The position numbers were made by a program, and so were the translations under genes. DNA of 64,000 nt from an uncultured Clostridia bacterium. Its GTDB lineage: Bacteria; Bacillota; Clostridia; HGM11514. The stretch is from contig CAKSKB010000008.1 in the NCBI GenBank assembly GCA_934464705.1, positions 1,591 through 65,590 of the forward strand, given 5' to 3'. This document shows, one piece after another, positions 13,893 to 48,000 of this stretch. Below the pieces are notes generated by a model that saw only the letters and a program-made list of their open reading frames with translations, was not told the DNA's origin and made no database searches. The first letter of the stretch is position 1; every line of letters starts with the position of its first letter.

Positions 13893-14336
13893 CTATTCTT
13901 CCGCCTTCATGGTATATAAAATTCCGTCAAGGTGGTCAATTTCGTGGCAAAGCGCACGGGCAAAAAGACCGTTTCCGCTAATCTGCACCTTTTCTCCGGT
14001 TCGGGTCTGGGTTTCCACGGTGACGGACTTCGGTCTTCTGACCTCCGCCGACTCACCCGGAAGACTCAGGCACCCTTCCGGTTCGCATATTGTTTCCTTT
14101 GACCATGCGATGATTTTCGGGTTTATAAGTTCGTATCTTCCTTCGCCCGTATCGACAACCGCAACCCTTCTCAAAACCCCGACCTGAGGACCTGCAAGCC
14201 CTACGCCGTTTGCGCTCTGCATGGTTTCGTACATATCGTCAAGCAGGGTAAACAGCCTGTCGTTAAAATCCGTAACCTCACGGCATTTTTTATAAAGAAT
14301 TTCATCCGGAACTTTTCTTATTTCTCTTATAGCCAA
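13893..14336 (-). CDS. def: Peptide deformylase
   Basis: GVGLAGPQVG, EGCLSLPG, HEIDHLDG motifs. Confidence 0.93.
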   Translation of the reverse strand: MAIREIRKVPDEILYKKCREVTDFNDRLFTLLDDMYETMQSANGVGLAGPQVGVLRRVAVVDTGEGRYELINPKIIAWSKETICEPEGCLSLPGESAEVRRPKSVTVETQTRTGEKVQISGNGLFARALCHEIDHLDGILYTMKAEE

Positions 14337-14348
14337 AAAAATGACCTC

Positions 14349-31522: not shown

Positions 31523-32509
31523 TCATACACTCTTTTCCGCTGCCAATCCCGCTCCGATTGCCACGCAGGAAGCTGCATCCTTTGCGACATATGCGGAAAT
31601 GCCGGTTGATTTCCCGATAAGCTCTGAGATACCGCTCAAAAGACTCCCCCCTCCGGTCATAAGAATACCGTGTGCATTAATATCCGAAATAAGTTCGGGA
31701 GGAGTGCTTTCAAGCACACACTTAACCGAATCGACAATTCTTTCCGCACAGGGCATCAGCGCCTGCCTTACATCTTTAGAAGTTATAACAAAATTTTCGG
31801 GCAAACCGCTAAGCAGCCCAAGACCCGAAACCCTCATTTCGCCTTCTGCGTTTTCATCGACACTGCCGATTTTGATTTTTATATCCTCAGCGGTTCTGCT
31901 TCCGATTGTGATATTGTAGTTTTTGCGCACATAGCGCCTGATTGCTTCGTCAAAACTGTCACCGGCACAGAAAACCGTGCTGTTCACAACAATTCCGCCG
32001 AGAGAAATAACAGCAATATCACTGCTTCCGCCGCCTATATCGATAACCATTCTTCCGCACGGCTTGTTTATGTCAATTCCTGCGCCGATTGCCGCCGCAA
32101 CGGGTTCCTTAATCAGCTTTACACGCCTCGCCCCGGCAGCTGACGCAGCGTCTGACGCCGCTCTTTTTTCAACCTCGGACGCAAGGCACGGAACGCATAT
32201 AACCACCGACGGTTTCATGATATGTCCGCCCTCGGCTTTTCTTATATAATGCTTCAGCATACGCTCTGTCATTGAAAAATCGGAAATAACGCCGCTTCTG
32301 AGCGGCCTTACGGCAGTGATATTCTCGGGCGTTCTCCCGAGCATGCCCCTTGCCTCTCCGCCGAACGCAACGGTCTTTCCCGAAGCGTCGACCGCTATAA
32401 CAGACGGCTCCCTGATAACAATGCCTTTCCCCGAAACATACACCAAAACAGAAGCCGTTCCAAGGTCAATCCCGATATTTTTGGAAATAATATTAGCCAA
32501 CACGCTCAC
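31523..32509 (-). CDS. MreB/Mbl-family actin-like protein (orphan paralog, not in an mreBCD context)
   Basis: Actin-fold phosphate and adenosine motifs IGIDLGTASVLVYV, DIGGGSSDIAVIS, ILMTGGGSLL. 328 aa. Confidence 0.85.
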   Translation of the reverse strand: MSVLANIISKNIGIDLGTASVLVYVSGKGIVIREPSVIAVDASGKTVAFGGEARGMLGRTPENITAVRPLRSGVISDFSMTERMLKHYIRKAEGGHIMKPSVVICVPCLASEVEKRAASDAASAAGARRVKLIKEPVAAAIGAGIDINKPCGRMVIDIGGGSSDIAVISLGGIVVNSTVFCAGDSFDEAIRRYVRKNYNITIGSRTAEDIKIKIGSVDENAEGEMRVSGLGLLSGLPENFVITSKDVRQALMPCAERIVDSVKCVLESTPPELISDINAHGILMTGGGSLLSGISELIGKSTGISAYVAKDAASCVAIGAGLAAEKSV

Positions 32510-32544: not shown

Positions 32545-32763
32545 TTATTCTATCGAAAAATCATCCGGCGTAAAATTTTTCTCCTTGGGTTTTCTCATGC
32601 GTTTGGGCTGTATTCTAAGATAATTAAGGTCGAATTTCGGGCATGCGTGCTCCGGCTGAACAATCCCCTCAAATTCACACAGAATATCATCGGTCACCCG
32701 TATAAGCGTTGCATGATTGCAAAGCGCACAAATGCTGCGGTATTCATCACTCACCGCAATCAC
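32545..32763 (-). CDS. Small four-cysteine protein, hypothetical, immediately upstream of and co-oriented with the mreB-like gene
   Basis: 72 aa with Cys-X2-Cys ... Cys ... Cys (ICALCNH...ILCEF...HACPKF), suggesting a zinc-ribbon-like fold. The gap to the mreB-like start is 35 nt. Confidence 0.35.
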   Translation of the reverse strand: MIAVSDEYRSICALCNHATLIRVTDDILCEFEGIVQPEHACPKFDLNYLRIQPKRMRKPKEKNFTPDDFSIE

Positions 32764-32857
32764 TCCTTATAAATTTCATGTACATATATTTTATCACATT
32801 TCGGGCACAATTTCAAGTGCTTTGCATATATTGATAGTAACAGAAAGGCAGTGAGTT

Positions 32858-33166
32858 ATGATGAACAGCATTTTTCAGATATTGCTTCTGCTGTTTGCGC
32901 TGTACGGAATCGCAAACATTCTGTGGGAGCTGAACGAAAGCTTTTTCAAACAGAAAAATCAGAATACCGTTTCATATTTTGCGTTTATGCCGCTTGGGGA
33001 CGAGGACAGCATAGAGCACGAAATCCGCAGCTGCATAGACTACGCCGAGGAAATGAACTGTGAACCGATAATTATCGAAGGAGATAACTGGAGCAGCGAA
33101 AAAAAGCGCATAGCGGAAATCATAGCAAACGAAAGCGATATTAAAATCGTACATAAGAAAACATAA
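32858..33166 (+). CDS. Hypothetical protein with an N-terminal TM helix
   Basis: 102 aa ORF bounded by an RBS-like GGCAGTGAG upstream and a bidirectional terminator downstream. No recognisable motifs. Confidence 0.35.
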   Translation: MMNSIFQILLLLFALYGIANILWELNESFFKQKNQNTVSYFAFMPLGDEDSIEHEIRSCIDYAEEMNCEPIIIEGDNWSSEKKRIAEIIANESDIKIVHKKT

Positions 33167-33167
33167 T

Positions 33168-33200
33168 AAAATCGGTGCGAAAATAATTCGCACCGATTTT
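33168..33200. terminator. Bidirectional rho-independent terminator between convergent genes
   Basis: aatcggtgcgaa-aataa-ttcgcaccgatt perfect 12-bp stem flanked by A/T runs on both sides. Confidence 0.7.
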
Positions 33201-33204
33201 AAAA

Positions 33205-35412
33205 TTAATCTAATTGAAGAGGCACATCTCTAAAAAAACATTTCACTTCTTCACACTCACTGATATGCCTTTCAAAATTCTCTACATTGTAATCATTAAT
33301 CAAATCTGAGGTTTCAACTATACTCTTTTGCCATTCTGTTTCCATGTTGTCAAAAGCAGATTCAAATGCAGCTTTGGTATCATCCCAATATTTGTTTATA
33401 GCATTATGATACTTATCCAAGGCATTTTGGTCATTAAAGGCAGCTCTCAATTTTTTCGGAACCTTGTTTTTCCAATTTCCTGTAAGTACACCAAAAACAC
33501 CAAGTGCAGCAATAACTGCAGCTGCTATTCCCAAAGTTATAGGTCCTCCTATTGCGGAAACCGCAGAAATTGCAGTAGCTGTACCTCCGCCTATAGATAC
33601 GCCTAATGCCGAAAGAAGGCTGACTCCTTTAGCAACAATTATATATCCTCCCAAATTGCCGAGCGACGACGCCCATAAAGCAAGTCCGCCAAGGGTTGCT
33701 GCACCGGTAAGCCCGGATGCAAATGCTCTTTTGGCATCAAAAGTATTGGCATAACACTTGCCGGAAACTTTAGCAGCCTTACATTCATTTTCAAAATCGG
33801 CTATAACCTCTTCTATTTTTTTGTTTAAACCGACGGTACGGGTATTCAAAACAGCTTCCATTGAATTGCTTAATTCAGAACTTATATATGAACCTAAAAG
33901 CTGCATATCATCTTTTTTGTTCTTATACTTTTTTTGCTCTATGGTTTTTAAAATGAAATCGTCGGATAAAACCCTATCGTATTTATCATCAAAATGTTTT
34001 AGTGATTTTTGCCTTGCATCTTCAATATATGAAATAATACCGCTTTTCTTTTCATCTAATTTAGCTTTTCTCAACGGTTCATTTTTCAATGCTTCGGCAA
34101 CATATTCTTTGCAGTTTTCGCGTTCATTAATAAGCTTGTTGTATCTTTCAATCACCTCATCAATTGAAATAATATTTTCGTTGCAAAAATCCAACACGGA
34201 TTTTACTGCATTATCAGCTATTAATCCGGGAATCCGTTCTATAGTTTTAACAAATTCATTTTCGAAATCACTTCGTATACTTTCAATATCAATAGTATAT
34301 GAAAAGAATCTTTTTCTCATATCGGATTCATCGTAATCAAGACCGGTTACATTTCCCCTGTTTTTCCAAAAATCGTTGGGCAAAGTACTGCAGAACCGTT
34401 CGCAGCCATCATCAAGAATTTCCTCAACAGTATCTTTATTTCCTCTGTTTACGGCATGAGCGTGAGTTGCAACTACAAACAAGTTCGCAAACTTATCAAC
34501 ATTATTTTCCGGATTTTCAATTGCGGCAAGCATATTTAAAGCACTTTTCAGATTTATGCAATCTTCAGAATTAAAAAATCCCATAGCTTGAGACAAATAT
34601 ATAAGAACATCAGCCTTATTTTTTGCCTTTTCCGCAGTAATATTATCGCTTTCCACACCACCTGTGAAGCCGGGCACATCGACTAAATCACAATTTTTAA
34701 GTACGGCGCTGTCAACATAGATAAGGGCTGCACCGATATCGTCAGAACTTGCTTTATAACCTTCACCTTTCCTTGTTCCGTAAGACGAAAGCATTTCGGC
34801 ATTTCCGCCTGCAAGCCGCCATTTTTTGTAGTACTCCTCACATGTCAGTTTTGAATCATCAAAACATTCATCTTCGGTATCTCTTTTCATAATGGTAAGC
34901 TCATCCGAAATAAATTCCGGTCTGTCATCAATATGCTTAACATATACGGTTACCGATGTTGTAGGAGTCCAGTCGGTCGGCATTTTTTCTTTTCCTATTA
35001 GTGCGTTTATCATAGTACTTTTACCGGCATCGGATCTTCCCAAAAATACAACCTTTGGTTTTTTAGCCGCAAACTGCATTATTTCTTTGAGCTTTAACGC
35101 ATAGGTTTGATCAAATCCAACATGATTTTTTAAATAAGAATCAATGTAATTATCCAATATATTTTTTTTGTACCTTACCTCGCTCCAGGCATCTTCAACC
35201 TGCAACACCTTCGGCATAGGTTTTTCAAAAGAAACCAGCTGATCAAGCGTCATTCCTGTGCGAATTGCAATTTTTTGCAATACATCCAATGAAATTTGCT
35301 CCGGATTCTTTTCCAATCTTGAGATTGCATCCTGACGCATTTCCAAAAGAGCGGCAAATTCAGCCTGAGTCATTTTCAAACTATTTTCCCGAAAATTTTT
35401 CAAATCAAACAT
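33205..35412 (-). CDS. Fusion protein: N-terminal XRE-family HTH + dynamin-like / TRAFAC-class GTPase + helical stalk + C-terminal glycine-rich membrane paddle
   Basis: HTH_XRE: MTQAEFAALLEMRQDAISRLEKNPEQISLDVLQKIAIRTGMTLDQLV. GTPase: G1 GRSDAGKST, G2 threonine region TDWTPTTS, G3 DVPGFTGG, G4 NKAD. Long predicted coiled-coil middle region. An 80-aa Gly/Ala-rich hydrophobic segment (GLTGAATLGGLALWASSLGNLGGYIIVAKGVSLLSALGVSIGGGTATAISAVSAIGGPITLGIAAAVIAALGVFGVLTG), then a roughly 95-aa helical tail. RBS GGAGG 8 nt upstream of the ATG. Confidence 0.7.
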   Translation of the reverse strand: MFDLKNFRENSLKMTQAEFAALLEMRQDAISRLEKNPEQISLDVLQKIAIRTGMTLDQLVSFEKPMPKVLQVEDAWSEVRYKKNILDNYIDSYLKNHVGFDQTYALKLKEIMQFAAKKPKVVFLGRSDAGKSTMINALIGKEKMPTDWTPTTSVTVYVKHIDDRPEFISDELTIMKRDTEDECFDDSKLTCEEYYKKWRLAGGNAEMLSSYGTRKGEGYKASSDDIGAALIYVDSAVLKNCDLVDVPGFTGGVESDNITAEKAKNKADVLIYLSQAMGFFNSEDCINLKSALNMLAAIENPENNVDKFANLFVVATHAHAVNRGNKDTVEEILDDGCERFCSTLPNDFWKNRGNVTGLDYDESDMRKRFFSYTIDIESIRSDFENEFVKTIERIPGLIADNAVKSVLDFCNENIISIDEVIERYNKLINERENCKEYVAEALKNEPLRKAKLDEKKSGIISYIEDARQKSLKHFDDKYDRVLSDDFILKTIEQKKYKNKKDDMQLLGSYISSELSNSMEAVLNTRTVGLNKKIEEVIADFENECKAAKVSGKCYANTFDAKRAFASGLTGAATLGGLALWASSLGNLGGYIIVAKGVSLLSALGVSIGGGTATAISAVSAIGGPITLGIAAAVIAALGVFGVLTGNWKNKVPKKLRAAFNDQNALDKYHNAINKYWDDTKAAFESAFDNMETEWQKSIVETSDLINDYNVENFERHISECEEVKCFFRDVPLQLD

Positions 35413-35500
35413 ATTTTTTCCTCCGTGCTTTTTATTTTAACAATATATTATCACATAATTTTCATTTTGTCAAGTGGTGTTTTGCATTTTTTTATATTAT

Positions 35501-35518
35501 TTATGCATAATTGCATAA
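35501..35518. promoter_or_regulatory. Inverted repeat TTATGCA-N4-TGCATAA in the promoter region of the HTH-GTPase gene; candidate operator
   Basis: ttatgcat aat tgcataa at 35501-35518, about 90 nt upstream of the HTH-GTPase start codon, between the upstream terminator and the RBS. Confidence 0.3.
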
Positions 35519-35531
35519 ATAATATAAAAAA

Positions 35532-35557
35532 ATGGGTTCGCCGCATTGCGAACCCAT
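35532..35557 (-). terminator. Rho-independent terminator after the giant SLH protein gene
   Basis: atgggttcgc-cgcatt-gcgaacccat hairpin followed on the minus strand by TTTTTTTATATTATTT. It separates the giant gene from the HTH-GTPase gene. Confidence 0.65.
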
Positions 35558-35565
35558 TATATTTT

Positions 35566-38500
35566 TTACCTTTCCAAAAGCCTTTGAAGTATAGCTGCTG
35601 CTTCCGCGCGGGTTGCGGTTGCTTTGGGGTCAAGAGTGGTTTCGGTTCTGCCGACCATTATTTTTGAAGCCGCAGTCCACTTAAGCGCCGGGACAGCATA
35701 CTCCGAAATGTCGGCAAAATCCGCATACGAGGATATATCAAAGCTCTCGCCTGCGCTCACGCCAATGCCCTTAAAGCCTGCATATCTGTACATTATTGCC
35801 GCAATCTGCTCTCTTGTTATCAAATCATCGGGAGCAAACTCGGTTTCCGAATAGCCGCTTACTATGCCGTTTTCTGCTGCCCATGCAACAGCGTCTTTAT
35901 AGTATGCACCATCCAAAACATCCTCAAAACCGGAAGACCGCGAGGCTTTCGGCTCGCCTTCTGCCCTATGAAGAACCGTTACAAGCATAGCGCGTGTAAG
36001 ATTCTGATTTGGTCCGAAAAGCGTATCGGTTATACCCTTAAAGAGGTTGTTGTCATAAACATACGCTACATTATCGTAGAACCAGTCAGACTCAATGACA
36101 TCCGTAAACGGAAGTCTTGATTTTTCGGCAAATACCGCCTTAACCTCAATATCCCTGTCAATAGATTTTATAGTGTAAGGCGAGGTTCTGCCGACCGACA
36201 TACCGTTTATCAGTATATCGGCAATAACGAAGCCTTCGTCGGGGGTTGCGGTAACAGTGACGGAAGTTCCGCTTGCGGCTCTTTCGCTCGAAACTGTCAC
36301 TTTACCGTGTTCACTCTCAAGAACCGTAACCTTATAGTATCTCACGCTGCCGCTGCCCGAGGACGAGCCGCCGCTCGGTCTGTCGCCCTTTTTGAAGAGC
36401 GCAATTGCTTCGGTCAGATCCGAAACGGAATCGGTGTAATCCTTATCGGTGGATGAAGAATTGTTAAGCACCGCTTTTGCCTTTTCGATTGCATCCGAAA
36501 GCGCATTCTTTCTTCTTTCGGAAGCGTTCGGCTCAGACGCCAGCACACCTTCCGCCTCTGCTATTTTTGCTTCAAGGTCATCCCTTGTATTGGTTCCGAC
36601 CTCAATTACCACATTATCCGAAACACCTGCGGAAATTATCTGACCGTCCTCGGTTTCAACATCCGCCGTTGAAATTTTTGCTTTAACCGCCGTTTCGCCC
36701 GGGATAAGCGCAGTCAGTTTACCGCCTTCAAACGATACGATGTTTTTTGCGTACATGATGTTCCACTCAACATCGTCTTCATCTGCGATATAGGTTGAAC
36801 CGTTTGCCGACAAAAGCGCAGTAAGGTCAATGCTCTGACCGTTTCTTATGCTTATTTTCTTGATTCCGTTTGAATCGGCAGCAACGGATTTTCCGCCGTT
36901 TTGTATTTCAATTCCGGAAATTGCGGCACTGCCGCCCCTTATAACGGTTACGACAAGTTCGGTTTCGTTTCCGGCACGGTCGGCTGCCTTCAGCCTGTGA
37001 ACAACGCTCATTTTGCCCTCGGGAAGGGTTTTTGAGATTGTAAATCCGCCGTTATTTGAAATATTTATTCCGTCGGAGGAGCCGTCAACCGTGAGAACTG
37101 CCGAATTTTCGGTCATACCCTCAATTGTATATGCACCGGATTCATCAGCCGTTATTACATTTGCACCTATCGCAACGGCTGCTGACGGGTCTTCGATGCT
37201 TGCGGCGGTGTTTCTTGTAAGCGACAAAACAGGAAGCGATGTGTCAACCGTAAAGCCAAGCTGTGAATTTTCAATATCGGATGCATCAGCGCCTGTTATG
37301 TGGTCTTTGTTGTCGGCATATGCGGTGAAGTCGATTATGTAATCTCCGTCCTCGAGATTGTCAAGCACAAACTTCCAGTCGGTTTTGAACTTATTGTCGC
37401 TGTACGCTTTAAGCCCGTTTACGGAAAGTTCCACAAATGCAGGCTCGCTGAATGTGTATTCAACTGTCACGCTGTCCTGATTGATAAATTCCTTCGTTGT
37501 ATCAAAGTTGGTTTTAACCGACAACAGCTTAGGTGTTTTCGGATTCGGGAGCGTAAGAATATTCGAATCGGCATAGCCGTCACCGTAATAATAAAGCGTT
37601 TTGCTTTCATCATTCGGGTCAGCCGTTTCTCTAAGCGTTTTTATACGCACAAAATAGTTTTTGCCGACCTCAAGATTTGCTTCCTTGCCAAACACAAAAT
37701 TGCTGCCCATCGCAAACTGACCGTACGCATTATCAAGAATTTTGCCGTCCTCGGAGATGATTTCGGCAAGATAATGTGTGTAATCCGCATTTTCGGCATC
37801 GGTTGCCGATACGAATATTCCGCCGTTTCCGCCGTAAGCGATATGAACTGACGAAACGCTCTTTGGAAGCTTCGGATTTTTGAATGTTATCGGCGTTTTA
37901 TCTATCGCAAGGCTTATGCCGTCGGTTGCGGAAACGGTTGCAACCATATAATATGTGCCCGACGGGAACGAATCCGGAAGGGTAATATTCTCCGTGCCCG
38001 ATTTTATATCCGCACCGTCTTTATGAAGAATGTTTATGCCGAGTGCGTCACCGCTGTTTTTGGACGCTTTGATTTTATCAAGAACATCCGAGTCCTCAGT
38101 AAGATAAACATCAACGCAGCCCTTTTCGTGAGACTTACCGGTCACGGTAAGGTTTGCTGCCATGTCAAACGATTCGCTTGAATCATGCGATGCGGAAACG
38201 CCCGTAAGCTCCGCAATATCGTCAACCGCATTCATAGAGAATGTCTTTATCTCAATATTTTCGGTTGTGTATTTAACCTTCCATTCTCCGTTCGCGATTG
38301 CGTTTTTGTCGGTAACGGTTACATAGATGAAGTTTCCGTCATCACGGTTCTGAACCACCATGTTTCCGCCGCCGTTTCCGTCATCGGGAGTTGTTTCGAT
38401 TACAATTCCGTTTTTAGGACTTGTAACGGTTATCTCTCCCGCCTTGGGAGTTCCTGCGCCGGTGTACGGAATCTCAAGCAGGAGTGCGTCCTGATCGCCT

Positions 38501-41500
38501 GCACCGTTGGTTTTTACAATAGCCTCTTTTGCGTTTTCGGGCGCTGCAAGACTCACAACGCTGAGCGCACGGATATTTGTTCCGTAAAGCGCGGTTCCTT
38601 CGTCGGCGCTGCCAAGGCTGTCGCCGCCGCGGCTCGGTGCGCTGAGGTCGATATTCTTACCGAACGAAACCTTTTCGCCCCAGTAATAAATAACACCGAA
38701 TTTAATTCCTATTATTTTAATATTTGCGCCTATAAACTCATGGGACGCCGCCGCTTCAACCCCGGCAAGCTCCTTGCCGCCGACAAACGGTATGCTGTCG
38801 GGTATGCACAGCGAAGCATAGATATAGCCGTAGAAATAGTCGTCCGCTATGTTTACGGTTATGCCGCCCTTTATCAGCCCGTCAATAATATTTATGCTGC
38901 CGTAAAGGTTCAGTTCCCACGGTTCAATCCACCGCGCCTGTATGCCCGCCTGCAGATTTAGGATTCCCTTTGCATATTTTATATTCATATCACCCGTAAG
39001 CGACAGCCCTTCAAGGCTGATTCTGGCGTTGAAATCTCCCGTAAGCACCCCGATTGCCTCCAGCCTTGTGAAAAGAAGAAGCGTTACCGGAGGAAGTTTA
39101 TCAAAACTGCCGCCTATGGAATCCGCCAAATCGTTGATTCCGCCGCCGAGACCCGTCATGAAAAGAACAGGCGGCGCAAGAGGAATTCTCAGACCGTCAC
39201 GGATATAAAACTCAATCTTATCGGGAAGAATCTTATCCTTGCCCTTAAGTTTAACCTGCTTGAATGCAAGAACACCTTCGCACTCGATTACCTTAATGTT
39301 AAGACCCGCATTTATTTCATACACATTCTCAATTGTGTTGATTGTAACCGATGCATATATTCCCGGGGCGTTTGAAACGAGAGAACCGAGAAGGTCTTTC
39401 GGAAGACCGAGAGAGAACTTTGCGTCAATGCCTATATATCCCTTATCGTCTTCAACCTCAACCTTGCCGTCCTTAACTTCTCCCCGTTCGCCAAAGAGGA
39501 TATTATTGATTTCCGCCGAAAGCTCGCCTTCGGAAAGCTTGGTATCCTTAGAAATCTTGGTCTTTTCGTCAGATGTCGGCTGCGGAGTTTCGTCAAACAT
39601 CTGATTGAAGGTATCGGAATAATCGTCCGGGTCGCTGTCATCAAAGAGGTTGTTCATCTCCATAGAGATGTCCTCCTGGTCGGCAGTCAGATCCCTCTGC
39701 GGTTCATCTTTCTTCTTGGGCGCCTTTATCGGAAGGCTTATCGAGCCGCCGAAGCCTATGCCGTATGTAACAACACCGTCACCGTCCTCATACCAGCTTG
39801 AACTCATCTCGCCGAATTTCAGGTCGATAAGAAAACCGCCTATCATCTGAATCATTGTTGCCGCACCGTCGAGAGAAAGCGTAAGAGTCGCCGGTTCAAG
39901 CGCGGACGCATCCTGGAATCTCTCGGTATCAAGAGTTGTCGCAACGCCCTTGTTTACGGTAAAGCTCCACTTGCTGCGCCACACATTTATGGAGTTTACA
40001 ACCTTCAAAAGACCGTCGCCCTTAACTGTGTAAGCGCCGTTTTTCTCGTAAATTTCAAGCGGTTTATCGCCCTCGTATGAGAGCATATTGTTTATAATTA
40101 TATCGCCGTCGCCAAATTCCGCCTGCCAGTATCTTTCGCCGCTGTCACGCTTCATTTCGCGGATACCGCCCCGGATATTGAGTATAACTTCGGCGTCTGC
40201 AATTGCGTTTTCATCTTTACCGAAATCAAATTTGAGCTTTTCGCTGCGTATTTCGCCTGTTTTTTCAATTTCGCCATTATAGAATTTTTTATATTCACCC
40301 TCGTTTGCAAAAGTGAAAAACTCATAATCGGTAGCATTGTTCTTTGTTATTCTGACAAGCGCAATCGTTCCGTATGATTTCAGCTTATACTTTTCATCCG
40401 CCGAAACGGTAAGCGCTGCCTTGGCGGTTATGGATTTACCGAACTCCGCAATAAGGTCCTTATCGGAAAATGTGAACACAAGGCTGTACTCTCCGACCTC
40501 AAGTTCTTCTTTGGTGGTAAAGCTAAGATTCTGATATTCCTCATCCATGAACGCAATGTTCTTTTTCTCGATAAGCACGCTGTGGCCGCTCGTTTTGTGT
40601 TTAAGCCTTAAATCCCAGCCCTGATTGCCGGAAAGCGCCTTAAAAGGCTTCATTGAACCCGAAACCGTAATCGCCTTTTCGCCGCCGGTCCATACAATTT
40701 CGGGGCTGATCTTGCTCATCTGAACTTCTGCGGTCTTTCCGCTGACGGAGCGGAGAATAACGCTGTCCTCACCTGCGGTTTCGACCGTTTTCTGCGTTCC
40801 GTCGGAAAGATTTGCCGTTGCGGTGAGCGACGCATAAACCGTACCGGCGGTGAGGTCCGTCTGCGGTTTTGCGCGAAGCCTGAATTGCCTTGTTACAACC
40901 TCTTTGCCGATTTCATTTATAGTTACAATTGAGCCGATGCCGCCGACAATCTCGAAAAACTTTTCGTCAACGGTCAGATTAAGCTGTGCAGAGGTGAGCG
41001 GAACGGCAGCATCCCCCGAATTATCAATTTCAACAGTAACATCAAATTCGCCGCCGTTCTTGTAAGCTTTTCCGCTTTCGTCAAGTTCCACCCTGCCGCA
41101 AACGATGTTGAGCCCTATATCGCTTTCATCATCGTTTGTGAAATTTCCGACGCCGTAAAGCGATTCCGCAGAAAAGCTTCCGCCGTTCGGAACGGCCTTT
41201 TTCTCCCAGTATACCGCAACTGCGCTGTCGGGAGTTTTATACGCATTGGAATAATTGGTAAAATCACAGTATTCGTCGGGCTTATAGTCAAACCTTGTAT
41301 TTGCAAGATTCGCCCAGTGACCGACTATTACGGAGGACGGTTCAATTCCGCCGCTCCAGCCCTTGGTTATAACATACGCCAGTTTTGAAGGGTTGGACAG
41401 AGAATCCACACACCGAAGCTGCTGCGGAACCTCATCTCCGGAAAACTTTTTCTCCGTCATGGTCGGAACAATATCCGTATCTGCCACCACATACGGTGCG

Positions 41501-42045
41501 TCGGTATCGTTTCCGAGCGCGGTATCGAGCATAAGACGGACGCTTATATCGGAAGTCTTGCCGCTTGCGTTTGAAACCTCAAACGAAAAGCCGGCATTTC
41601 CGAGAGTATCGGTGTTTTCGTCCGTGCCGAGCGCAACCTTCATTTTTACGGTTACGCCGTTAATAGTCCACGGAACGGTTAAAAGTCTGCCCTCCTCGGA
41701 AACAACGGGTGTTCCGAGGGTTGAACTCAGACCGAAAAATCCGTAATCCTGCCCGAAAACATAATCCTTATCGTCTATACGGACGGAAACGAAAGAAGTT
41801 CCGTTGCTGCGCGCCTTATCCTCGCTGTAAAGCAAAGGAATATTATTGTCAAGCGACTTTTTGGGGTTACCCTCGGCGGTTTCGATTGCAAAACCGCCGG
41901 TATCCGCATGGAAGGTATATGTAAGATACCCGTTTGAAATACTGTAAATATTCTGTTCCTCAGCACCGGCAATACACGGCGTTAAAACACCGATAAGCAT
42001 CGAAAGCACAAGCGCATAAGAAATCAGTTTCTTAAAAATATTCAT
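35566..42045 (-). CDS. Giant (2159 aa) S-layer-homology-anchored cell-surface protein with Ig-like domains
   Basis: Signal peptide MNIFKKLISYALVLSMLIGVLTPCIAGA. An acidic linker (DDSDPDDYSDTFNQMFDETPQPTSDEK). Big_2-like domain (ISIRNGQSIDLTALLSANGSTYIADEDDVEWNI...). Coiled-coil (LEAKIAEAEGVLASEPNASERRKNALSDAIEKAKAVL). Three C-terminal SLH repeats (FTDVIESDWFYDNVAYVYDNNLFKG...; FEDVLDGAYYKDAVAWAAENGIVSG...; FADISEYAVPALKWTAASKIMVG...). Confidence 0.8.
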   Translation of the reverse strand: MNIFKKLISYALVLSMLIGVLTPCIAGAEEQNIYSISNGYLTYTFHADTGGFAIETAEGNPKKSLDNNIPLLYSEDKARSNGTSFVSVRIDDKDYVFGQDYGFFGLSSTLGTPVVSEEGRLLTVPWTINGVTVKMKVALGTDENTDTLGNAGFSFEVSNASGKTSDISVRLMLDTALGNDTDAPYVVADTDIVPTMTEKKFSGDEVPQQLRCVDSLSNPSKLAYVITKGWSGGIEPSSVIVGHWANLANTRFDYKPDEYCDFTNYSNAYKTPDSAVAVYWEKKAVPNGGSFSAESLYGVGNFTNDDESDIGLNIVCGRVELDESGKAYKNGGEFDVTVEIDNSGDAAVPLTSAQLNLTVDEKFFEIVGGIGSIVTINEIGKEVVTRQFRLRAKPQTDLTAGTVYASLTATANLSDGTQKTVETAGEDSVILRSVSGKTAEVQMSKISPEIVWTGGEKAITVSGSMKPFKALSGNQGWDLRLKHKTSGHSVLIEKKNIAFMDEEYQNLSFTTKEELEVGEYSLVFTFSDKDLIAEFGKSITAKAALTVSADEKYKLKSYGTIALVRITKNNATDYEFFTFANEGEYKKFYNGEIEKTGEIRSEKLKFDFGKDENAIADAEVILNIRGGIREMKRDSGERYWQAEFGDGDIIINNMLSYEGDKPLEIYEKNGAYTVKGDGLLKVVNSINVWRSKWSFTVNKGVATTLDTERFQDASALEPATLTLSLDGAATMIQMIGGFLIDLKFGEMSSSWYEDGDGVVTYGIGFGGSISLPIKAPKKKDEPQRDLTADQEDISMEMNNLFDDSDPDDYSDTFNQMFDETPQPTSDEKTKISKDTKLSEGELSAEINNILFGERGEVKDGKVEVEDDKGYIGIDAKFSLGLPKDLLGSLVSNAPGIYASVTINTIENVYEINAGLNIKVIECEGVLAFKQVKLKGKDKILPDKIEFYIRDGLRIPLAPPVLFMTGLGGGINDLADSIGGSFDKLPPVTLLLFTRLEAIGVLTGDFNARISLEGLSLTGDMNIKYAKGILNLQAGIQARWIEPWELNLYGSINIIDGLIKGGITVNIADDYFYGYIYASLCIPDSIPFVGGKELAGVEAAASHEFIGANIKIIGIKFGVIYYWGEKVSFGKNIDLSAPSRGGDSLGSADEGTALYGTNIRALSVVSLAAPENAKEAIVKTNGAGDQDALLLEIPYTGAGTPKAGEITVTSPKNGIVIETTPDDGNGGGNMVVQNRDDGNFIYVTVTDKNAIANGEWKVKYTTENIEIKTFSMNAVDDIAELTGVSASHDSSESFDMAANLTVTGKSHEKGCVDVYLTEDSDVLDKIKASKNSGDALGINILHKDGADIKSGTENITLPDSFPSGTYYMVATVSATDGISLAIDKTPITFKNPKLPKSVSSVHIAYGGNGGIFVSATDAENADYTHYLAEIISEDGKILDNAYGQFAMGSNFVFGKEANLEVGKNYFVRIKTLRETADPNDESKTLYYYGDGYADSNILTLPNPKTPKLLSVKTNFDTTKEFINQDSVTVEYTFSEPAFVELSVNGLKAYSDNKFKTDWKFVLDNLEDGDYIIDFTAYADNKDHITGADASDIENSQLGFTVDTSLPVLSLTRNTAASIEDPSAAVAIGANVITADESGAYTIEGMTENSAVLTVDGSSDGINISNNGGFTISKTLPEGKMSVVHRLKAADRAGNETELVVTVIRGGSAAISGIEIQNGGKSVAADSNGIKKISIRNGQSIDLTALLSANGSTYIADEDDVEWNIMYAKNIVSFEGGKLTALIPGETAVKAKISTADVETEDGQIISAGVSDNVVIEVGTNTRDDLEAKIAEAEGVLASEPNASERRKNALSDAIEKAKAVLNNSSSTDKDYTDSVSDLTEAIALFKKGDRPSGGSSSGSGSVRYYKVTVLESEHGKVTVSSERAASGTSVTVTATPDEGFVIADILINGMSVGRTSPYTIKSIDRDIEVKAVFAEKSRLPFTDVIESDWFYDNVAYVYDNNLFKGITDTLFGPNQNLTRAMLVTVLHRAEGEPKASRSSGFEDVLDGAYYKDAVAWAAENGIVSGYSETEFAPDDLITREQIAAIMYRYAGFKGIGVSAGESFDISSYADFADISEYAVPALKWTAASKIMVGRTETTLDPKATATRAEAAAILQRLLER

Positions 42046-42059
42046 ATCCGTCCTCCCCG

Positions 42060-45000
42060 TTAGTTAAGTACATAAACCTGAAGCGTAATATAATCACGCT
42101 TGTCAGTCTGGATAAAGAAGGTGTACCAGCCTGTTTCAAGACCGTCTATTTCAAATTCACCGTTTTGATTTTTTGAAATCATAGTACCCGAACGCTTCAT
42201 CTGCCCCATTGTTTTTACGCCCTTCTGATAGCGGACATAAGCTGTTGATGTCGGTGAGAAGTTCTTAAGCGCAATATTTATGCTGTCGCCGTCAACCTCG
42301 CTTCTGCCGGCAGCGTCCGGAAGTTTGCCGTTAACCGTTGCCGCAACATCGTAGAGCCCCACAAGGCGAACCGTTCTTTTAACCCTTGTCACATTATGTG
42401 CGTTATCCGCCACCTCGTAAGTTATAACATACGAAATGCTTCTGTCAAACTTGTTGTTTTCTATGTTATCGGGGTCAAATCCTCCCCAATCCGTTACCGC
42501 AACGGCGTTTGTAAGGTCATATCCTCCGCCGAACTTATCGTATGCGCGGAATGCCTCGCCCGGCTTTGTGAGCATATCCTTGCTGTAAGGCTCGCCCATT
42601 CCGGGGTTTTCATAGAACACGAGTTCTTCTTTGCCGAGAAGGTCAATCACCGGAGGCTCCTTGTCGATAACCTCAATATCCACCGCATACGAATCGGAAA
42701 GCTGATTGTTTTTCTTCATATCAAATATATACATTCCGTTGTCGGTGTAGGTTTTCTCGTTGGTTTTTGAGTAATCTCCGCTGCCGCCTGCGGGGCGTGT
42801 GTCGGAGTCGGTTGTAACGGTAACCGTAACATCATTGCCGGTTACGGGATTTGCTCCGTAGACATCTCCTGCCTTTGTAGAAACCCTGAAACCTGCCTCG
42901 TCCCCGGGCTTGTGGCTTCCGCTGTGGGGTTTGGTTACCCATGCGCCGTTTTCAAGCACATCATAGTCATAACTCCATCTTACCTCGGTAATTTTCGGAG
43001 CAACCGTATCGATTTCGCTGATCTTAACCGTGAGATAGGAACATATGCCCTCATCGTCAAAAACCTTGAAAGTGTAAACTCCGTTTTTGTAGAATGTGAA
43101 TTCCGCAATGTCGGCCTTATACTGAATGCCGCCGTAAAGCACATTTACATCGGCAAGGCTGCGTCTTTTATCGATTTCGTTCCCTGAAGCGTCAAGCGCC
43201 TTTTTGAACTTGATTTTCACTTCGGTTTTGTTCTCGTTCGGGAAAAGTTCCGCCGAGAGCGCCGGGGGAGTTTTATCGATATTCGACACCGTAACAACAT
43301 CGGTAACCTCATTTCCGCCCTCATCCGCGAATTTAATTCCGAGGGAGCCGCTTTCCGTAAAGGTTATTGTTGATGTTCCGTAATCAACCGAATACTGAGA
43401 GCGGTCGGTTATTCCGCTCACCGGTTCAACCTCGGTTATTTTCACATTCGGTTTTGAGAATTTAAGCGTTACGCTAACGCTCTTGGATGTAATCGTGTCG
43501 GGGTCAACACTGTAAACCGCGTCGATAATTTCGGGAGCCTCCGTATCTATATTGGAAATATGAAAGTTTTTCGTGGTTTTGTTTCCGACCTTATCGTAAA
43601 GCGTTATGCCATACGAACCGTTTTCCGGAAGTTCGCCGGTAAATTCGGTACCGTTTTCGGTAAGCGGAATATCCTTTCCGCCTGCCGCTTTCAGCGTAAC
43701 CGAACCCACGCCGCTGCCCTCATCGGTTGCGGTGATTGTTATTCCGACAGGCTTATTTGTTGTAAGCGTTGTTGAAAGCTGATATGAAATTTCGCCCGGA
43801 ATTATATCGAAGTTTACCGCCGAAATTTCTTTTGAAGCAGTATATCCGTACATATCCTTCATAGTAAATGTAAATGAAGGCTCATAGCTGTCCAAAATCT
43901 TTTCGGTGTTTCCGCCGTTATTGGTTATGCGCAGACCTCGCTCCTCTGCCCTGTCGGTAAGATTCACAATCGCCTTTACGCGTTTATAATAGGTGTTTTC
44001 CGCATTAATATCGGAAACCTCCTGCCAGTCTCCCTTTTCATCCTCGTAAAGGTAAGAAACTGTGTAGTCCTTGTCGGCGCCTTCCTCAATCGGAGTTTTG
44101 TTTATGCATTTGACCATCTTGTAGTCATCTCCGTCAAAAAGCTCGCACTCCGTTCCGAAGCCTTCAAGTCTCTGAACCGCTCCCCAAGAAACCGCACCTG
44201 TCTGCGAACTGCACCTAAGAGCGGTTATCCTTGAATTATCGGTAAAGGTGTATATAACCTTTTTAACACCGTACTCGTCACCGTCACTGATGAAATCGAT
44301 CTTAACCGGGTAACCGCCGGAGCTCATATCATAGCTCCACGGATTTTCGTCATAATCGATTAAGTTGCCGTCATCGTCGTGCATCGGGATATTAAGTTCA
44401 ACGGAGGTATCGGTCGCCTCGTCATAATATCCTCCGGCGTTAATCGTTTCTATACCGGATTCCGGATCCTGAATGGTAACCACGAAAGTTACATCGCCGA
44501 TTGTCGGATTTACGCCGATTATATCCTCATATTCATCGAAAACAAATATTTCGGGGTTGATTTCAACCTTTACAATCGGCGGAGTGTTGTCGATATTGTC
44601 CGCAATAAGGTCGCATATGCTCCATGTGTCTTTATCCGCATTTCCTGCCTCGAAACTGTAAACGCTGACGGCTCTTTCCATAATATTAAGGTATTTACCG
44701 ATGTCAAGAATGAGCGGATGTACGGAATAAACAAGCTTTGTATATCCGCCGCCGGCTTCATCATACTCTGATTGTTCCTCATTAAGGAACAACCCCTGAT
44801 TGTTTGCCGCCTGATCGTCATAAGGCATAACTCTCAAAGCGCTTTCCGAAGGCGTGATAACCAGCGTTACCTCGCCGCCCTCGGGTGACAGCATTTTATC
44901 ATCCGGAACATCAGAACCGTTAAACTGCCTTACGATATTTGCTTTTCCCGTAATGCCGAACTCAACATCGTTTATATCGATATTAACCGCCTTCGCTCTG

Positions 45001-48000
45001 CCTATGCTGTCAACGGTGTAAAGAGTGTAGCTGCCGTTTTTGTTTATTGCAAAGCTGTAATCCTGCGAATATGCGCCGGCATAACCTGCCGCAATCGAAA
45101 GATTTGTTTCCTCGAGTGTAAGCTCGTTTTCGGTATCGGGCGTATCCGTCACCTTATCCTCCGGCAACACATATACCGGAACATTGAAATTCACCCTGAC
45201 AATCGACTTTTTATCAGCCTTCTTCGGAAAAGCTTCCGCCGATTTTACGGTAATTTCCGCATCGGTTGTGTTTAATGTTTCCCCAAGAATAACATCACGG
45301 GTGTTGCCGAGGGAATCGGCAAGCCTTAACCCTATACGGAAACTTCCGGTTGTTCCGAAAATCTTCACGCTATATGTGTAGTTGTTGTCGCCGTCGAAAC
45401 TTCCGGCGCTGCTTGCCGTTTCGTATGCCGAAACGCTATCACTGCTGTATTCAAAATAAGTATCCTTGATTTTTCCGCCGGAGAGCGCCGATGCCGCCTC
45501 CGCTTCGGGAATAATCGCAAACGAAATACCGTCAGGTGCTGCTTCGTTAATCTTTATGCTTGCTTCGCAGTCTACCCTTTCGCCGCTCGGCTTTTGCGTA
45601 ACCGAAACGGTTTCCGCCGTAGGAGCCTCGCGGTCGATTCCGTTTATAATAAGCGGAACCTCGGTAACATTCCCGGCGGCGTCTGTGATTTTCAGGACGG
45701 TATTTGTATTCTGCGTTGCAGTAACGCTGTAGCCGTCCTCGCTTTTTTCGATTTTAACCGAAGAATCCTCGCATGTAACTGTCATACCAACGGGGTTATC
45801 GTCTGCCGTATAAAGCTTGCCCGAAATATTTGCGGTTGTGTGTTCGTCGCCCATTACAAGCCTTGCGCTCGGCGGCGTATCGTCATATATGAATCTGTAA
45901 ACCGTCGTCGAAATAAGGTTGGGATTGAATTTTGACATATCCTCGGCATTCGTGCCGATTGCAGCCTGAATATACAGCGTATTTTCGCCGTCCGCCGGGG
46001 CGGCAAGCGGAGATTTAATCTCCGTTTCGGCTTCAAAACCCGATTCTGTAACCGTCATTTTGTTGGTCTGCTTGTCGGGGTCTTTGTCGGTTCTGTTCCA
46101 GCTGCTCATCGACTGCAGACTTGTGCCGTACCTTATATAAAGATACTGACCGTCTGCCGCCGACGGGTTTTTAAACTCCTCCGAAACTTTAAGCGAAATG
46201 CTGTAATCCTCGGACGAAACAAGCGGCAGCCCTCCGTATGTAAGCTCGGTATCTGGTACAGCGGTAACAAGCGGTGCCGAATTTCTAATATAGAACACAT
46301 TCAGGGTGTCGCTTTCGGATCTGTGCCCGTAAACATCCTCGGCCGCTGCCTTGACAGCATATGCGCCGGACGACAGATTGCTGCCGAGCGTCAGCGTGGT
46401 ATTTATAATACCGCTTACCGGCGAAAGCGCTGTTTTTTCGATTCCGGAAATCTCACTGCCGTCAGGATTTACAACAACGGCATAGTTTTTGATTTCGGTT
46501 TCGGTGTTTTCCGCAACCCCCGTAACATCGTTTGCACGAACCGTCACATTCTGGGTTTCGGCATATGTTCCCTTGTTTTTAACAATTGTGTAAACCTCCG
46601 GAGCGGCGTTGTCAAACGCAAGCGGCCTTTTGTAAACCCTCGCATTTGCCTCCCCCGACGGCGGAACAACCTTGCACAGAAGCGTATAAGCTCCGTTCAT
46701 CAGAACATCCTTGCCGTCATTGTCCTTCTGAACCGCCGCACCTATATCCGCACCTGCACTGTAAGGCTTATAATCCGCAACAAAACCGCCTTTTTGGTCC
46801 TTCCACCTGTAATAAACCTTGTTGCTTGCATTTGTGGTTATCGAAATCTTATGGCTCGACTGCGCAACCGTACTGTCGGTCAGTATGTCAATGCTGCAGT
46901 CGGAGTCCTCATTAATAATATTAATATCCTTTGCGATAACTTCAGTTTCGTTTCCGAAAGCGTCCTTGCCCTTATAGAAAAGTCTGCCGGAAAAGTTTTC
47001 GCCCTTGTTGACCTTAAGAAAAGCCGCTGCGGTTTTTCCGCCCGAAACATCGGCCTGGTCAATAAATGCCCATTTGCCGAGCGTGCTTGAAATGGTTCCG
47101 CTCTTCTGCTGCTCTGCCGCAGCCTCGTCAAGCGCAGGGGCGGTAAGTTCATCGGTAAAGCAATAATAGAGCCTTCCCGTACCTGACGCATCTTCAATTG
47201 TCGCCTTATATGTATTGCTCTTGCTGCCGTCGGAGGCAGCAGCGCCGCTGCTTTCCGTCATGCTAACCCTCGGTGCAAGATTATCAAGCTTTATACCAGC
47301 GGTTTTACTTTCAAATGCATTGCCGGCATCGTCGGCGCCGCTAACCGAAAGCGTATATTCACCTTCCGTTTCCTCGCCGAGAGCAAGCGTAACAGAAGTT
47401 GAACTTCCTGCCGCAGAAGGAACGGTCTGCTCGGTATTACCCGTACCGCCGCCTTTGTAGTTCTTTATTTTAACAGCGTTTCCGTTTTTATCGAGAAGCT
47501 GCATTTTATATGTTTGCCGTCCGCCGGAACTGTTGGTATTTTCGCTGGGAGTTGAGGTGATATTCAGCGTTTTATGCCAATCGGTGAGATTTTCACCGGC
47601 GGACGGTTGTAACTTAACGGAAGGTCTTACCGCATCGACCTTATATGCTGACTGATACGATGAAAATTCGGTATTTTTGTCTGTTTCGTTCCAAAGCATA
47701 AAGGTCGTATCGTCATTTCCGAATTTAAGCTTGGGGTTGTCAAAGCTGAGGGTCATTCCGACATTTTCGGAATCCGCACCCTCGTCATACGGGAAAACCA
47801 ATCTGAAGCAGCCGTCCGACACTTTGACCGACTTTGCTTCCGCCGTAAGCTTTTTTCCTGTCCTGCCAAGCTGAAGATAAGCATTGTCACAGATAAATGT
47901 TGCATCGGCATTAAGATTTTCCAAACTGATATGTTTGTTGTTATACGGTTTGTCATCCTTGTTCTTAACATAGCAGTCTACGGCTATTTTCCTGTCTGTG

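Follow-up and report, generated by a model that had tools for sequence, protein, structure and literature searches.

A dynamin-like protein with an N-terminal XRE helix-turn-helix domain and a predicted operator at its own promoter

We analysed a stretch of 64,000 nucleotides (nt) of genomic DNA from an uncultured Clostridia bacterium (GenBank assembly GCA_934464705.1, contig CAKSKB010000008.1, positions 1,591 to 65,590 of the forward strand), hereafter referred to as the window, and concentrated on a single gene within it. Its coding sequence (33205..35412, minus strand) specifies a protein of 735 amino acids (aa) plus stop, as supported by the list of open reading frames (ORFs), by Pfam and by full-length homologs that are 44-55% identical. 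According to its structural model, the product is a dynamin-like protein (DLP) of the BDLP/mitofusin class that carries a genuine XRE-type helix-turn-helix (HTH). As judged from sequence comparison, this HTH is most likely an autoregulatory DNA-binding domain with a predicted operator at the promoter of its own gene. We propose, with about even confidence, that the protein is a solo, self-regulating membrane-surveillance or anti-phage dynamin for which the HTH acts as its own transcription factor. An identical copy of the protein is recorded in three other assemblies.

Architecture of the HTH-dynamin protein

The presence of an XRE HTH at the N-terminus, which the original prediction had read from the letters of the window alone, was confirmed by Pfam HTH_3 above its cut-off at residues 4-59 (35236..35403, minus strand; 38 bits, cut-off 23). 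HTH_26 also matches (24 bits, cut-off 22), and the domain could be aligned in 148 of 154 family members. We built an AlphaFold2 model on 24 diverse homologs (predicted local distance difference test (pLDDT) 81, predicted template modelling score (pTM) 0.79), in which residues 4-60 form five short helices. The recognition helix corresponds to about residues 27-35 (QDAISRLEK). Sequence matches of the domain in the PDB are CylR2, HipB and PezA, all consistent with its assignment as an XRE/Cro-type domain.

The dynamin-type nucleoside triphosphatase (NTPase) domain follows at residues 118-376 (34285..35061, minus strand). Its dynamin-like character, also claimed beforehand, holds: Pfam Dynamin_N matches residues 121-291 above cut-off (56 bits, cut-off 27), an assignment to which PADLOC matches and motif conservation add, and the model shows a Ras-like core with insertions. 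Between the HTH and this domain, residues 76-115 (35068..35187, minus strand) form two helices in the model (76-96 and 103-115). By analogy with the N-terminal helices of BDLP and LeoA, these would constitute a neck, that is, a BSE-like bundle. Downstream of the NTPase, a long helical stalk (neck/trunk; residues 377-555; 33748..34284, minus strand) is modelled as helices 377-481, 484-494 and 500-543 at pLDDT 83-95 and aligns in Foldseek with the trunks of BDLP, IniA and Cj-DLP. The protein ends, past a hydrophobic membrane segment, in GED-like C-terminal helices (residues 648-735; 33208..33471, minus strand), modelled at 647-661, 664-706 and 710-728. Within them, W676, D678, T679 and E691 are invariant in a 24-sequence alignment (A1).

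In sequence searches of the PDB, using either the protein or the family profile, BDLP, mitofusin and Der matched at the P-loop/switch-I region and small XRE repressors at the HTH. Because these matches were confined to the P-loop and the HTH, a comparison of folds was needed. Foldseek against the PDB placed BDLP (2j68) first with a full-length alignment (E = 1.8e-13, 752 aligned columns), followed by Campylobacter DLP1/2, IniA, SynDLP and mitofusin/Fzo1. The same comparison in a viral fold library returned giant-virus dynamins and small HTH proteins only. The full-length alignment to BDLP, together with the model helices, bears out the proposed topology of GTPase, stalk, paddle and GED.

More specifically, BDLP of Nostoc punctiforme (2j68/2j69/2w6d) and mitofusin/Fzo1 have the same order of neck helices, GTPase, trunk, membrane element and C-terminal helices, and the P-loop and switch-I region of BDLP align by sequence too. 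The window protein differs from BDLP by the additional N-terminal XRE HTH with its predicted operator, by a membrane element of about 85 residues that is its best-conserved part, and by a G4 without N/T-K-x-D. The BDLP gene adjoins a second DLP gene (PMC5827413), whereas the window gene is solo. An HTH clade is absent from the classification of cyanobacterial DLPs (PMC5827413).

The nucleotide-binding motifs were only partly as described at the outset, when four canonical G motifs had been listed. G1 (GRSDAGKS, residues 125-132), the switch-I Thr (T152) and G3 (D245-x-P-G248) stand: G125, K131, S132, T152, D245, P247 and G248 are conserved at 95-100% among the 154 family members. G4 does not stand. 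The tetrapeptide NKAD (residues 265-268; 34609..34620, minus strand), which had been taken for G4, was rejected as a chance match, since its N is conserved in 12% and its K in 17% of the 154 members. Only D268 (98%) and A267 (64%) are retained within it, and the model places it at the alpha2/beta4 junction, between helix 254-264 and strand 269-275. In the model and the family alignment, the G4 slot comes after beta5 (strand 311-316) at residues 315-319 (34456..34470, minus strand; pLDDT <50 at 319-321), where A-T-H-A-H replaces N/T-K-x-D. Across the family the slot reads A-[ST]-[QH]-A-[H 50% / D 11% / N 7%], with no Lys. In the window protein and in plasmid and phage homologs alike, the Dynamin_N match extends no further than profile position 153-155 of 168, leaving unmatched the end of the profile, which we take to be where G4 (tKaD) lies. 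The degenerate G4 agrees with this early stop. Because G1, the switch-I Thr and G3 are so strongly conserved, the domain looks like an active NTPase; given the degenerate G4, the motor may not be GTP-specific. The GTPase domain also carries a conserved insertion at residues 177-225 (window 34738-34884), W-[DN]-D...YC..WK.AGG.AEML..YG.R.G, which has G203, L208, Y211 and G212 among its invariant residues and was matched to no known dynamin element.

The Gly/Ala-rich hydrophobic segment, or 'paddle', was delimited by hydropathy and conservation to residues 560-647 (33472..33735, minus strand), bounded by K561/R562 and W647-KNK. It extends over about 85 residues (18 Gly and 18 Ala in 95 residues; hydropathy up to 2.5), with low model confidence at 603-627, and would lie at the tip of the trunk, as suggested by the Foldseek alignment to BDLP, IniA and Cj-DLP1/2. 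This segment is the best-conserved region of the whole protein: its mean top-residue frequency is 0.56, compared to 0.46 (GTPase), 0.42 (HTH) and 0.30 (stalk). In alignment A1, it contains many invariant Gly residues as well as W580, N586, Y590, K595, P624 and W647. The segment had been called a glycine-zipper paddle. Its Gly/Ala-rich, hydrophobic character is evident, but the strict GxxxGxxxG motif is absent from it and only small-xxx-small repeats (G/A/S) are found.

A candidate operator at the promoter of the gene

The dynamin gene is a monocistronic unit flanked by terminators. A ribosome-binding site read in the sequence (GGAGG, 35420..35424, minus strand) lies 7 nt before the ATG. Upstream of it, the promoter scan found a strong sigma-70-type promoter with a TG extension (TTGACA-17-TAATAT; 35445..35473, minus strand), which is the top promoter-like site of the region (score 10/12). 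Directly past the stop codon, the terminator scan identified an intrinsic terminator with a stem of 15 base pairs (bp) (33167..33201), common to the dynamin gene and a convergent 102-aa ORF. The terminator of the upstream giant SLH gene (35531..35558, 11-bp stem and T tract) closes the unit on the other side. A promoter region with an inverted repeat and a terminator of its own had been proposed for the gene, and all three are found, at 35473..35445, 35502-35517 and 33201..33167, respectively. The dynamin gene and the convergent ORF together form a low-GC island (0.32-0.40 versus 0.45-0.50 in the flanks).

The inverted repeat is a perfect palindrome, TATGCA-ATTA-TGCATA (35502..35517), 28 nt upstream of the -35 hexamer, with arms that reach 12 nt (ATTATTTATGCA...TGCATAAATAAT). 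We consider it a candidate operator on the basis of motif search, co-variation and spacing. In the 64 kb it is the single match, with 0.12 expected. Its consensus, TAYGCA-N4/5-TGCRTA, recurs upstream of homologs that are about 50% identical and have unrelated neighbours. Within 200 nt upstream of the gene, TAYGCA-N4-TGCRTA was found at 11 or more of 12 positions in 20 of 70 loci, whereas dinucleotide shuffles gave 0.16 on average and never more than 2. Furthermore, the sites are concentrated upstream: 32 occur in 18 kb of upstream sequence versus 13 in 893 kb elsewhere, and all perfect sites are upstream.

Occurrence of the site follows the recognition helix. With a spacer of 4 or 5 nt, the palindrome accompanies a Q-x-x-[IV]-S-R helix in 25 of 35 loci and a diverged helix in 0 of 35 (Fisher p = 6e-11, a value that overstates independence because the loci are phylogenetically related). 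Among the positive loci are cyanobacteria, a Terriglobales metagenome-assembled genome and a Treponema. At this position, members with other recognition helices carry palindromes of a different sequence: AGACA-N4-TGTCT occurs twice in the Vibrio prophage copy, on either side of the promoter; a repeat with 17-nt arms follows the -10 in both Lactococcus paralogs; and two TATGC-type sites are present in the Carboxydocella copy. A de novo palindrome search in loci with diverged recognition helices, cyanobacterial and other, yielded no common motif.

The position of the site relative to the predicted -35 is also recurrent. Eight loci of diverse taxa share a gap of exactly 7 nt; four, the window among them, have one of 27-28 nt, and two have one of 58 nt (in one of these, L004, the site matches at only 10/12 positions). 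In two loci, L006 and L009, a second operator copy overlaps the -35 (-2 nt). Because of the recurrence across phyla, the co-variation with the recognition helix and the helical phasing, the palindrome is probably the cognate operator of the HTH, which argues for autoregulation.

Such an arrangement resembles that of autoregulatory XRE/Cro-C1 repressors (CylR2, HipB, PezA, CapH and the C proteins of restriction-modification systems). The HTH_3 domain is common to them and the window protein, which matches such repressors in the PDB and in PADLOC. As in those systems, the candidate operator is a palindrome at the promoter of the gene itself; its half-sites are separated by one helical turn, and it often occurs in two copies. 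Those repressors, however, are small dedicated regulators, or antitoxins with a dimerisation element of their own. The window HTH comprises 60 residues with no visible dimerisation module and is fused to a membrane NTPase of 670 residues, which presumably supplies dimerisation.

Two further observations concern the regulatory region of the window itself. An isolated ATGCA half-site lies between the palindrome and the promoter (window 35483-35487), 9 nt upstream of the -35, and could be a weak proximal operator comparable to the second sites in L006 and L009. Relative to the window, the sister assemblies L011 and L012 have a single changed base in the operator (TGCATA to TACATA), another in the -35 (TTGACA to TTGGCA) and three changed amino acids in the protein. 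The two bases are situated upstream of the gene, at distances of 105 nt and about 58 nt, and the differences represent natural variation in exactly the proposed regulatory elements.

Distribution and genomic context of the family

The family is abundant across phyla, horizontally spread and patchy in its distribution. An exhaustive profile search returned at least 544 clusters at 50% identity (E <= 1e-30). A word-indexed search returned at least 313 clusters at 90% identity, about 728-755 aa long with HTH_3 and Dynamin_N, many of them from Fusobacterium and labelled 'dynamin family protein' by NCBI. We collected 76 loci, one genome per species, from Bacillota, Fusobacteriota, Bacteroidota, many Nostocales cyanobacteria, Acidobacteriota, Treponema (Spirochaetota) and Verrucomicrobiota. 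A scan of viral contigs with the window protein alone as query found no relative.

Database labels of the family are limited to 'dynamin family protein' or 'helix-turn-helix containing protein', and the HTH-dynamin fusion is described in no paper of the literature searched, in line with the expectation that no characterised BDLP carries it. The suggestion that the fusion is unusual is accurate relative to characterised DLPs, but a family of at least 544 clusters is not rare. Taken together, what makes the family of interest is the fused, predicted autoregulatory HTH, the conserved membrane segment, the degenerate G4 and the occurrences in defence hotspots.

No general partner gene was found: no Pfam family occurs in more than 3 of 133 immediate neighbours, and clustering of the four neighbours on either side gave the same answer. 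Neighbours across the loci include Uma2, ParE, AbiJ_NTD4, integrases and resolvases, and 2 of the 133 immediate neighbours match LeoBC. Many copies, though not all, lie in mobile or conflict contexts. One is found at a prophage end, past a holin, an amidase and serine recombinases, another in an island with a methylase, an RT-protease and an integrase, and another in a region resembling a phage or an integrative and conjugative element (ICE). Mobilizable plasmids carry copies as well: that of Carboxydocella has one beside ArdC, and dairy plasmids of L. lactis have two HTH-DLP paralogs beside DUF262. On one of the latter, pSD96_06, the two paralogs (L089:1191-3377 and L089:6820-8847) are divergent and enclose two further genes, with DUF262 and DUF4230 genes adjoining. 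Their promoter regions are near-identical, each with the 17-nt-arm inverted repeat just past the -10. PADLOC-type tools may call such Lactococcus-like pairs 'Eleos'.

In four P2-like prophage records of Vibrio cyclitrophicus, a family member stands between replication gene A and the portal gene. It is a secure member of the family, with an alignment of 687 columns (hhalign E = 3e-51) that takes in the HTH region as well as the G4-less slot and the paddle. The corresponding P2 interval, gpA-gpQ, is a hotspot for anti-phage cargo, P2 itself carrying old and tin (PMC9122126, PMC13586616), and the Vibrio member occupies this hotspot. In Vibrio phage 10N.286.55.A5_PE003 (L091:5881-8178, record 14047-16344), the family member is followed by a 179-aa gene, and an insertion in its HTH hides that domain from Pfam. 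A separate observation comes from an island that harbours an HTH-dynamin gene in locus L004. There, two DNA methylases and an HTH gene adjoin a gene that joins a reverse transcriptase (RVT_1) to a trypsin-like protease (L004:1741-3414) and is possibly a defence gene of the retron or defence-associated reverse transcriptase (DRT) type.

Two kinds of recurrent companions were detected. In 13 loci, three co-oriented genes lie downstream of the dynamin gene (L037:8234-10586, and also L016, L018, L020-L024, L027, L029, L031 and L044). They encode three proteins: a helical one of about 278 aa, one of about 380 aa and a weakly SUKH/SMI1-like one of about 125 aa. The second of these combines an N-terminal Tox-GHH HNH/EndoVII nuclease (53-58 bits, cut-off 25) with a Gly-rich, multi-pass membrane C-terminus. 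None of the three proteins was matched in PADLOC; with the dynamin, this operon looks like a multi-gene conflict system. In five loci from different clades, small Gly/Ala-rich hydrophobic proteins of 68-115 aa are encoded directly upstream of the dynamin gene (L008:7659-7880, L013:5527-5805, L038:5778-5984, L042:5593-5940 and L073:5676-5984). Such ORFs make up 5 of 106 adjacent small ORFs versus 2 of 3044 elsewhere, and in L008 two operators and a promoter stand upstream of the small gene. A hidden Markov model (HMM) of the paddle alone did not match these ORFs, so the enrichment is compositional and homology to the paddle is not established. These companions give a hint of contacts between the conserved membrane segment and Gly-rich membrane helices of partners. 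The window copy has neither the Tox-GHH trio nor the small Gly/Ala-rich gene.

Among known dynamin systems, Eleos (LeoA and LeoBC) likewise consists of dynamin-like proteins in mobile or defence contexts, and its models are the closest in PADLOC (LeoBC 73 bits, 6e-21; LeoA 60 bits, 7e-17), with the best stretches listed lying on residues 83-275, in the N-terminal and GTPase region. Eleos comprises two consecutive DLP genes and needs its P-loop for defence. Membership of the window gene in Eleos was rejected: a family-profile search of all window ORFs found no second DLP in the 64 kb, and terminators flank the gene. No HTH is described for Eleos, and the profile matches of the window protein lie mainly in the GTPase region. 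The functional model for the surveillance interpretation is DynA of Bacillus subtilis, which clusters on damaged membranes and delays phage-induced lysis (PMC12998192). DynA differs in consisting of two fused DLP units and in binding membranes peripherally by a few Lys and Phe residues (PMC12998192); no DNA-binding domain is mentioned for it in the literature searched, and the NCBIfam DynA model gives the window protein 19 bits (cut-off 1600). Both DynA and Eleos are DLPs with proven roles in phage defence.

The immediate surroundings of the gene in the window are of another kind. Upstream, two giant ORFs stand in tandem, preceded by a gene for a TetR-family regulator (35566-48986 and 49005-49673, minus strand). 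They had been described as two giant surface-protein genes. The ORF of 2159 aa contains FIVAR and Flg_new_2 domains in addition to three SLH repeats; the ORF of 2308 aa has no Pfam match. On the other side, the convergent 102-aa ORF (32858-33166, plus strand) has an N-terminal hydrophobic helix and a low GC content like that of the dynamin gene; no family match was found for it, and it is present in the window's lineage only. Beyond it lies a Cys-rich ORF of 72 aa (C..C ... C ... C; 32545-32763, minus strand) with a promoter-like site at 32816..32788. Directly downstream of this ORF is an MreB/Mbl paralog (31523-32509, minus strand) without mreCD beside it, and the two may form a small operon. 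The MreB paralog (Pfam, 405 bits) ends 696 nt from the dynamin gene, in agreement with the distance of about 700 bp given for it originally.

A proposed self-regulating dynamin and its alternatives

Because the HTH has no visible dimerisation module and the predicted site is palindromic, dimerisation would have to come from the dynamin body. We propose that either a stalk dimer or a nucleotide-dependent dimer of the G domains would bring together two HTHs, which would bind the palindrome and set the expression of their own gene. Unassembled dimers would occupy the operator, and DNA binding would in this way report the assembly state of the dynamin. Upon recruitment of the protein to nucleotide-dependent assemblies on the membrane, operator occupancy would fall and more protein would be made. 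Repression is favoured as the mode of regulation because second operator copies overlap the -35. PspA/PspF and PutA follow a comparable logic, with transcription of the gene governed by the share of a membrane-active protein that is free of the membrane. The mechanism proposed here would place the same logic inside one polypeptide; there is no homology to these systems, the regulator and effector of Psp being separate proteins and PutA an enzyme.

The role of such a protein would be membrane surveillance, or protection from phage or envelope damage, in the form of a horizontally mobile single-gene module. This role is weakly suggested, by analogy with DynA and Eleos and by the hotspot, prophage and plasmid contexts. 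The possible defence role raised at the outset accordingly finds support in prophages, plasmids, islands and the P2 hotspot, but not in the ordinary context of the window copy itself. The low-GC island around the window copy, the Tox-GHH operon downstream of the gene in 13 loci and the PADLOC similarity to LeoBC and LeoA are further links to mobile elements or defence.

A number of points weigh against this interpretation. That the protein binds DNA, hydrolyses nucleotide and inserts into the membrane is a prediction from computation, as is the sign of regulation, and the degenerate G4 makes the nucleotide specificity, and even GTPase activity, uncertain. If the 85-residue segment anchored the protein permanently across the membrane, the protein could not move back and forth between membrane and DNA, and only a change in assembly state could alter operator occupancy. 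Activation instead of repression is conceivable for sites whose centre is about 50-70 bp upstream of the start site. The Q..ISR helix is retained in Fusobacterium copies, yet these have no clear operator (8/12), and in several species they occupy a conserved chromosomal site among housekeeping genes. About 10 of the 133 immediate neighbours match PADLOC defence HMMs, a figure that comes without a baseline for comparison. The window copy itself lies between surface-protein and cell-shape genes, which are ordinary neighbours. This context, and a family that is already abundant and annotated, temper the interest of the case.

A more far-reaching version of the self-regulating dynamin is possible, and we put it forward tentatively: the protein may be a sense-and-respond device in one polypeptide as well as a single-gene anti-phage system, with the assembly or nucleotide state of the dynamin gating DNA binding by the HTH. 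Membrane injury, for instance by phage entry or lysis, would then be read out as transcription of the effector's own gene, and the Gly/Ala segment would also serve as an intramembrane dock for optional effectors such as the membrane-anchored Tox-GHH nuclease or the small Gly/Ala-rich peptides.

The contexts and the membrane segment also bear on an abortive-infection effector, in which a phage-triggered dynamin would drive the Gly/Ala segments of many subunits into a pore or lesion, the membrane potential would collapse and the cell would die, with the HTH as an autorepressor that keeps the protein low. Conservation of the hydrophobic segment far beyond the needs of an anchor is in keeping with this idea, as are the copies that occupy the P2 defence hotspot or lie at the ends of prophages, the addition in some loci of a membrane-anchored Tox-GHH nuclease or of small Gly/Ala-rich membrane peptides, and the predicted tight autoregulation, which would suit a toxic product. 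However, no known DLP forms pores, and DynA protects membranes (PMC12998192). The Fusobacterium copy is stably chromosomal among housekeeping neighbours, and most loci have no immunity or antitoxin partner. We regard this explanation as unlikely.

Somewhat less likely still, the protein may be a simply autoregulated housekeeping remodeller of membranes that acts in division, sporulation, vesicle release or envelope repair and has nothing specific to do with phages or mobile elements. Roles of this sort belong to characterised BDLPs, namely LeoA in vesicle release, IniA and Streptomyces DynA/B, and both the chromosomal position kept in several Fusobacterium species and the ordinary neighbours of the window copy would fit. 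The patchy spread over seven phyla in varying contexts, the copies on plasmids and prophages and the low-GC island around the window copy do not. Moreover, neither the clustering of four neighbours on either side nor the Pfam scan of the 133 immediate neighbours revealed a conserved neighbour from a division, sporulation or envelope pathway.

A protein that combines sequence-specific DNA-binding potential with a membrane segment could also tether DNA to the membrane, the HTH anchoring a DNA site via the dynamin body and aiding segregation or positioning of the chromosome or mobile element, broadly like CrfC. Carriage on plasmids and prophages and a weak NCBIfam match to CrfC, a DNA-associated DLP, point in this direction. 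We nevertheless find it improbable: the palindrome stands at a fixed phase to the gene's own -35, as for a regulator and not a partition site, there are one or two copies per locus with no other in the 64-kb window, and no partition genes are linked.

Finally, the MreB paralog 696 nt away and the two giant genes upstream had given rise to a RodZ-like reading, in which the HTH of a cytoskeleton-coupled factor would contact the adjacent MreB paralog, possibly in the service of the giant SLH proteins. RodZ binds MreB through its N-terminal HTH, and it too is a membrane protein with an N-terminal cytoplasmic XRE-like HTH. RodZ has a single-pass transmembrane topology and a periplasmic domain, which the window protein does not, and the RodZ-type HTH_25 finds no match in the window protein even at E <= 1. 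In a tblastn survey of 73 loci, MreB, the giant SLH protein and the 102-aa ORF were adjacent only in L011, the window's own lineage, so that linkage to MreB amounts to 1 of 73 loci, and terminators isolate the gene transcriptionally. Since the palindrome, a candidate DNA operator, co-varies with the recognition helix, DNA binding is indicated rather than cytoskeletal contact. The RodZ-like reading is very improbable and largely refuted by the context survey.

The roles and regulation of the dynamin-like proteins of bacteria remain largely unexplained. A dynamin joined to a transcription-factor domain with a predictable operator offers a handle on the signals that engage a bacterial dynamin. 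If the self-regulating dynamin proposed here protects against phage, it would represent a compact dynamin defence in a single gene, different from both DynA and the two-gene Eleos. Furthermore, its non-canonical G4 and conserved 85-residue segment could widen current views of how dynamins bind nucleotides and membranes.

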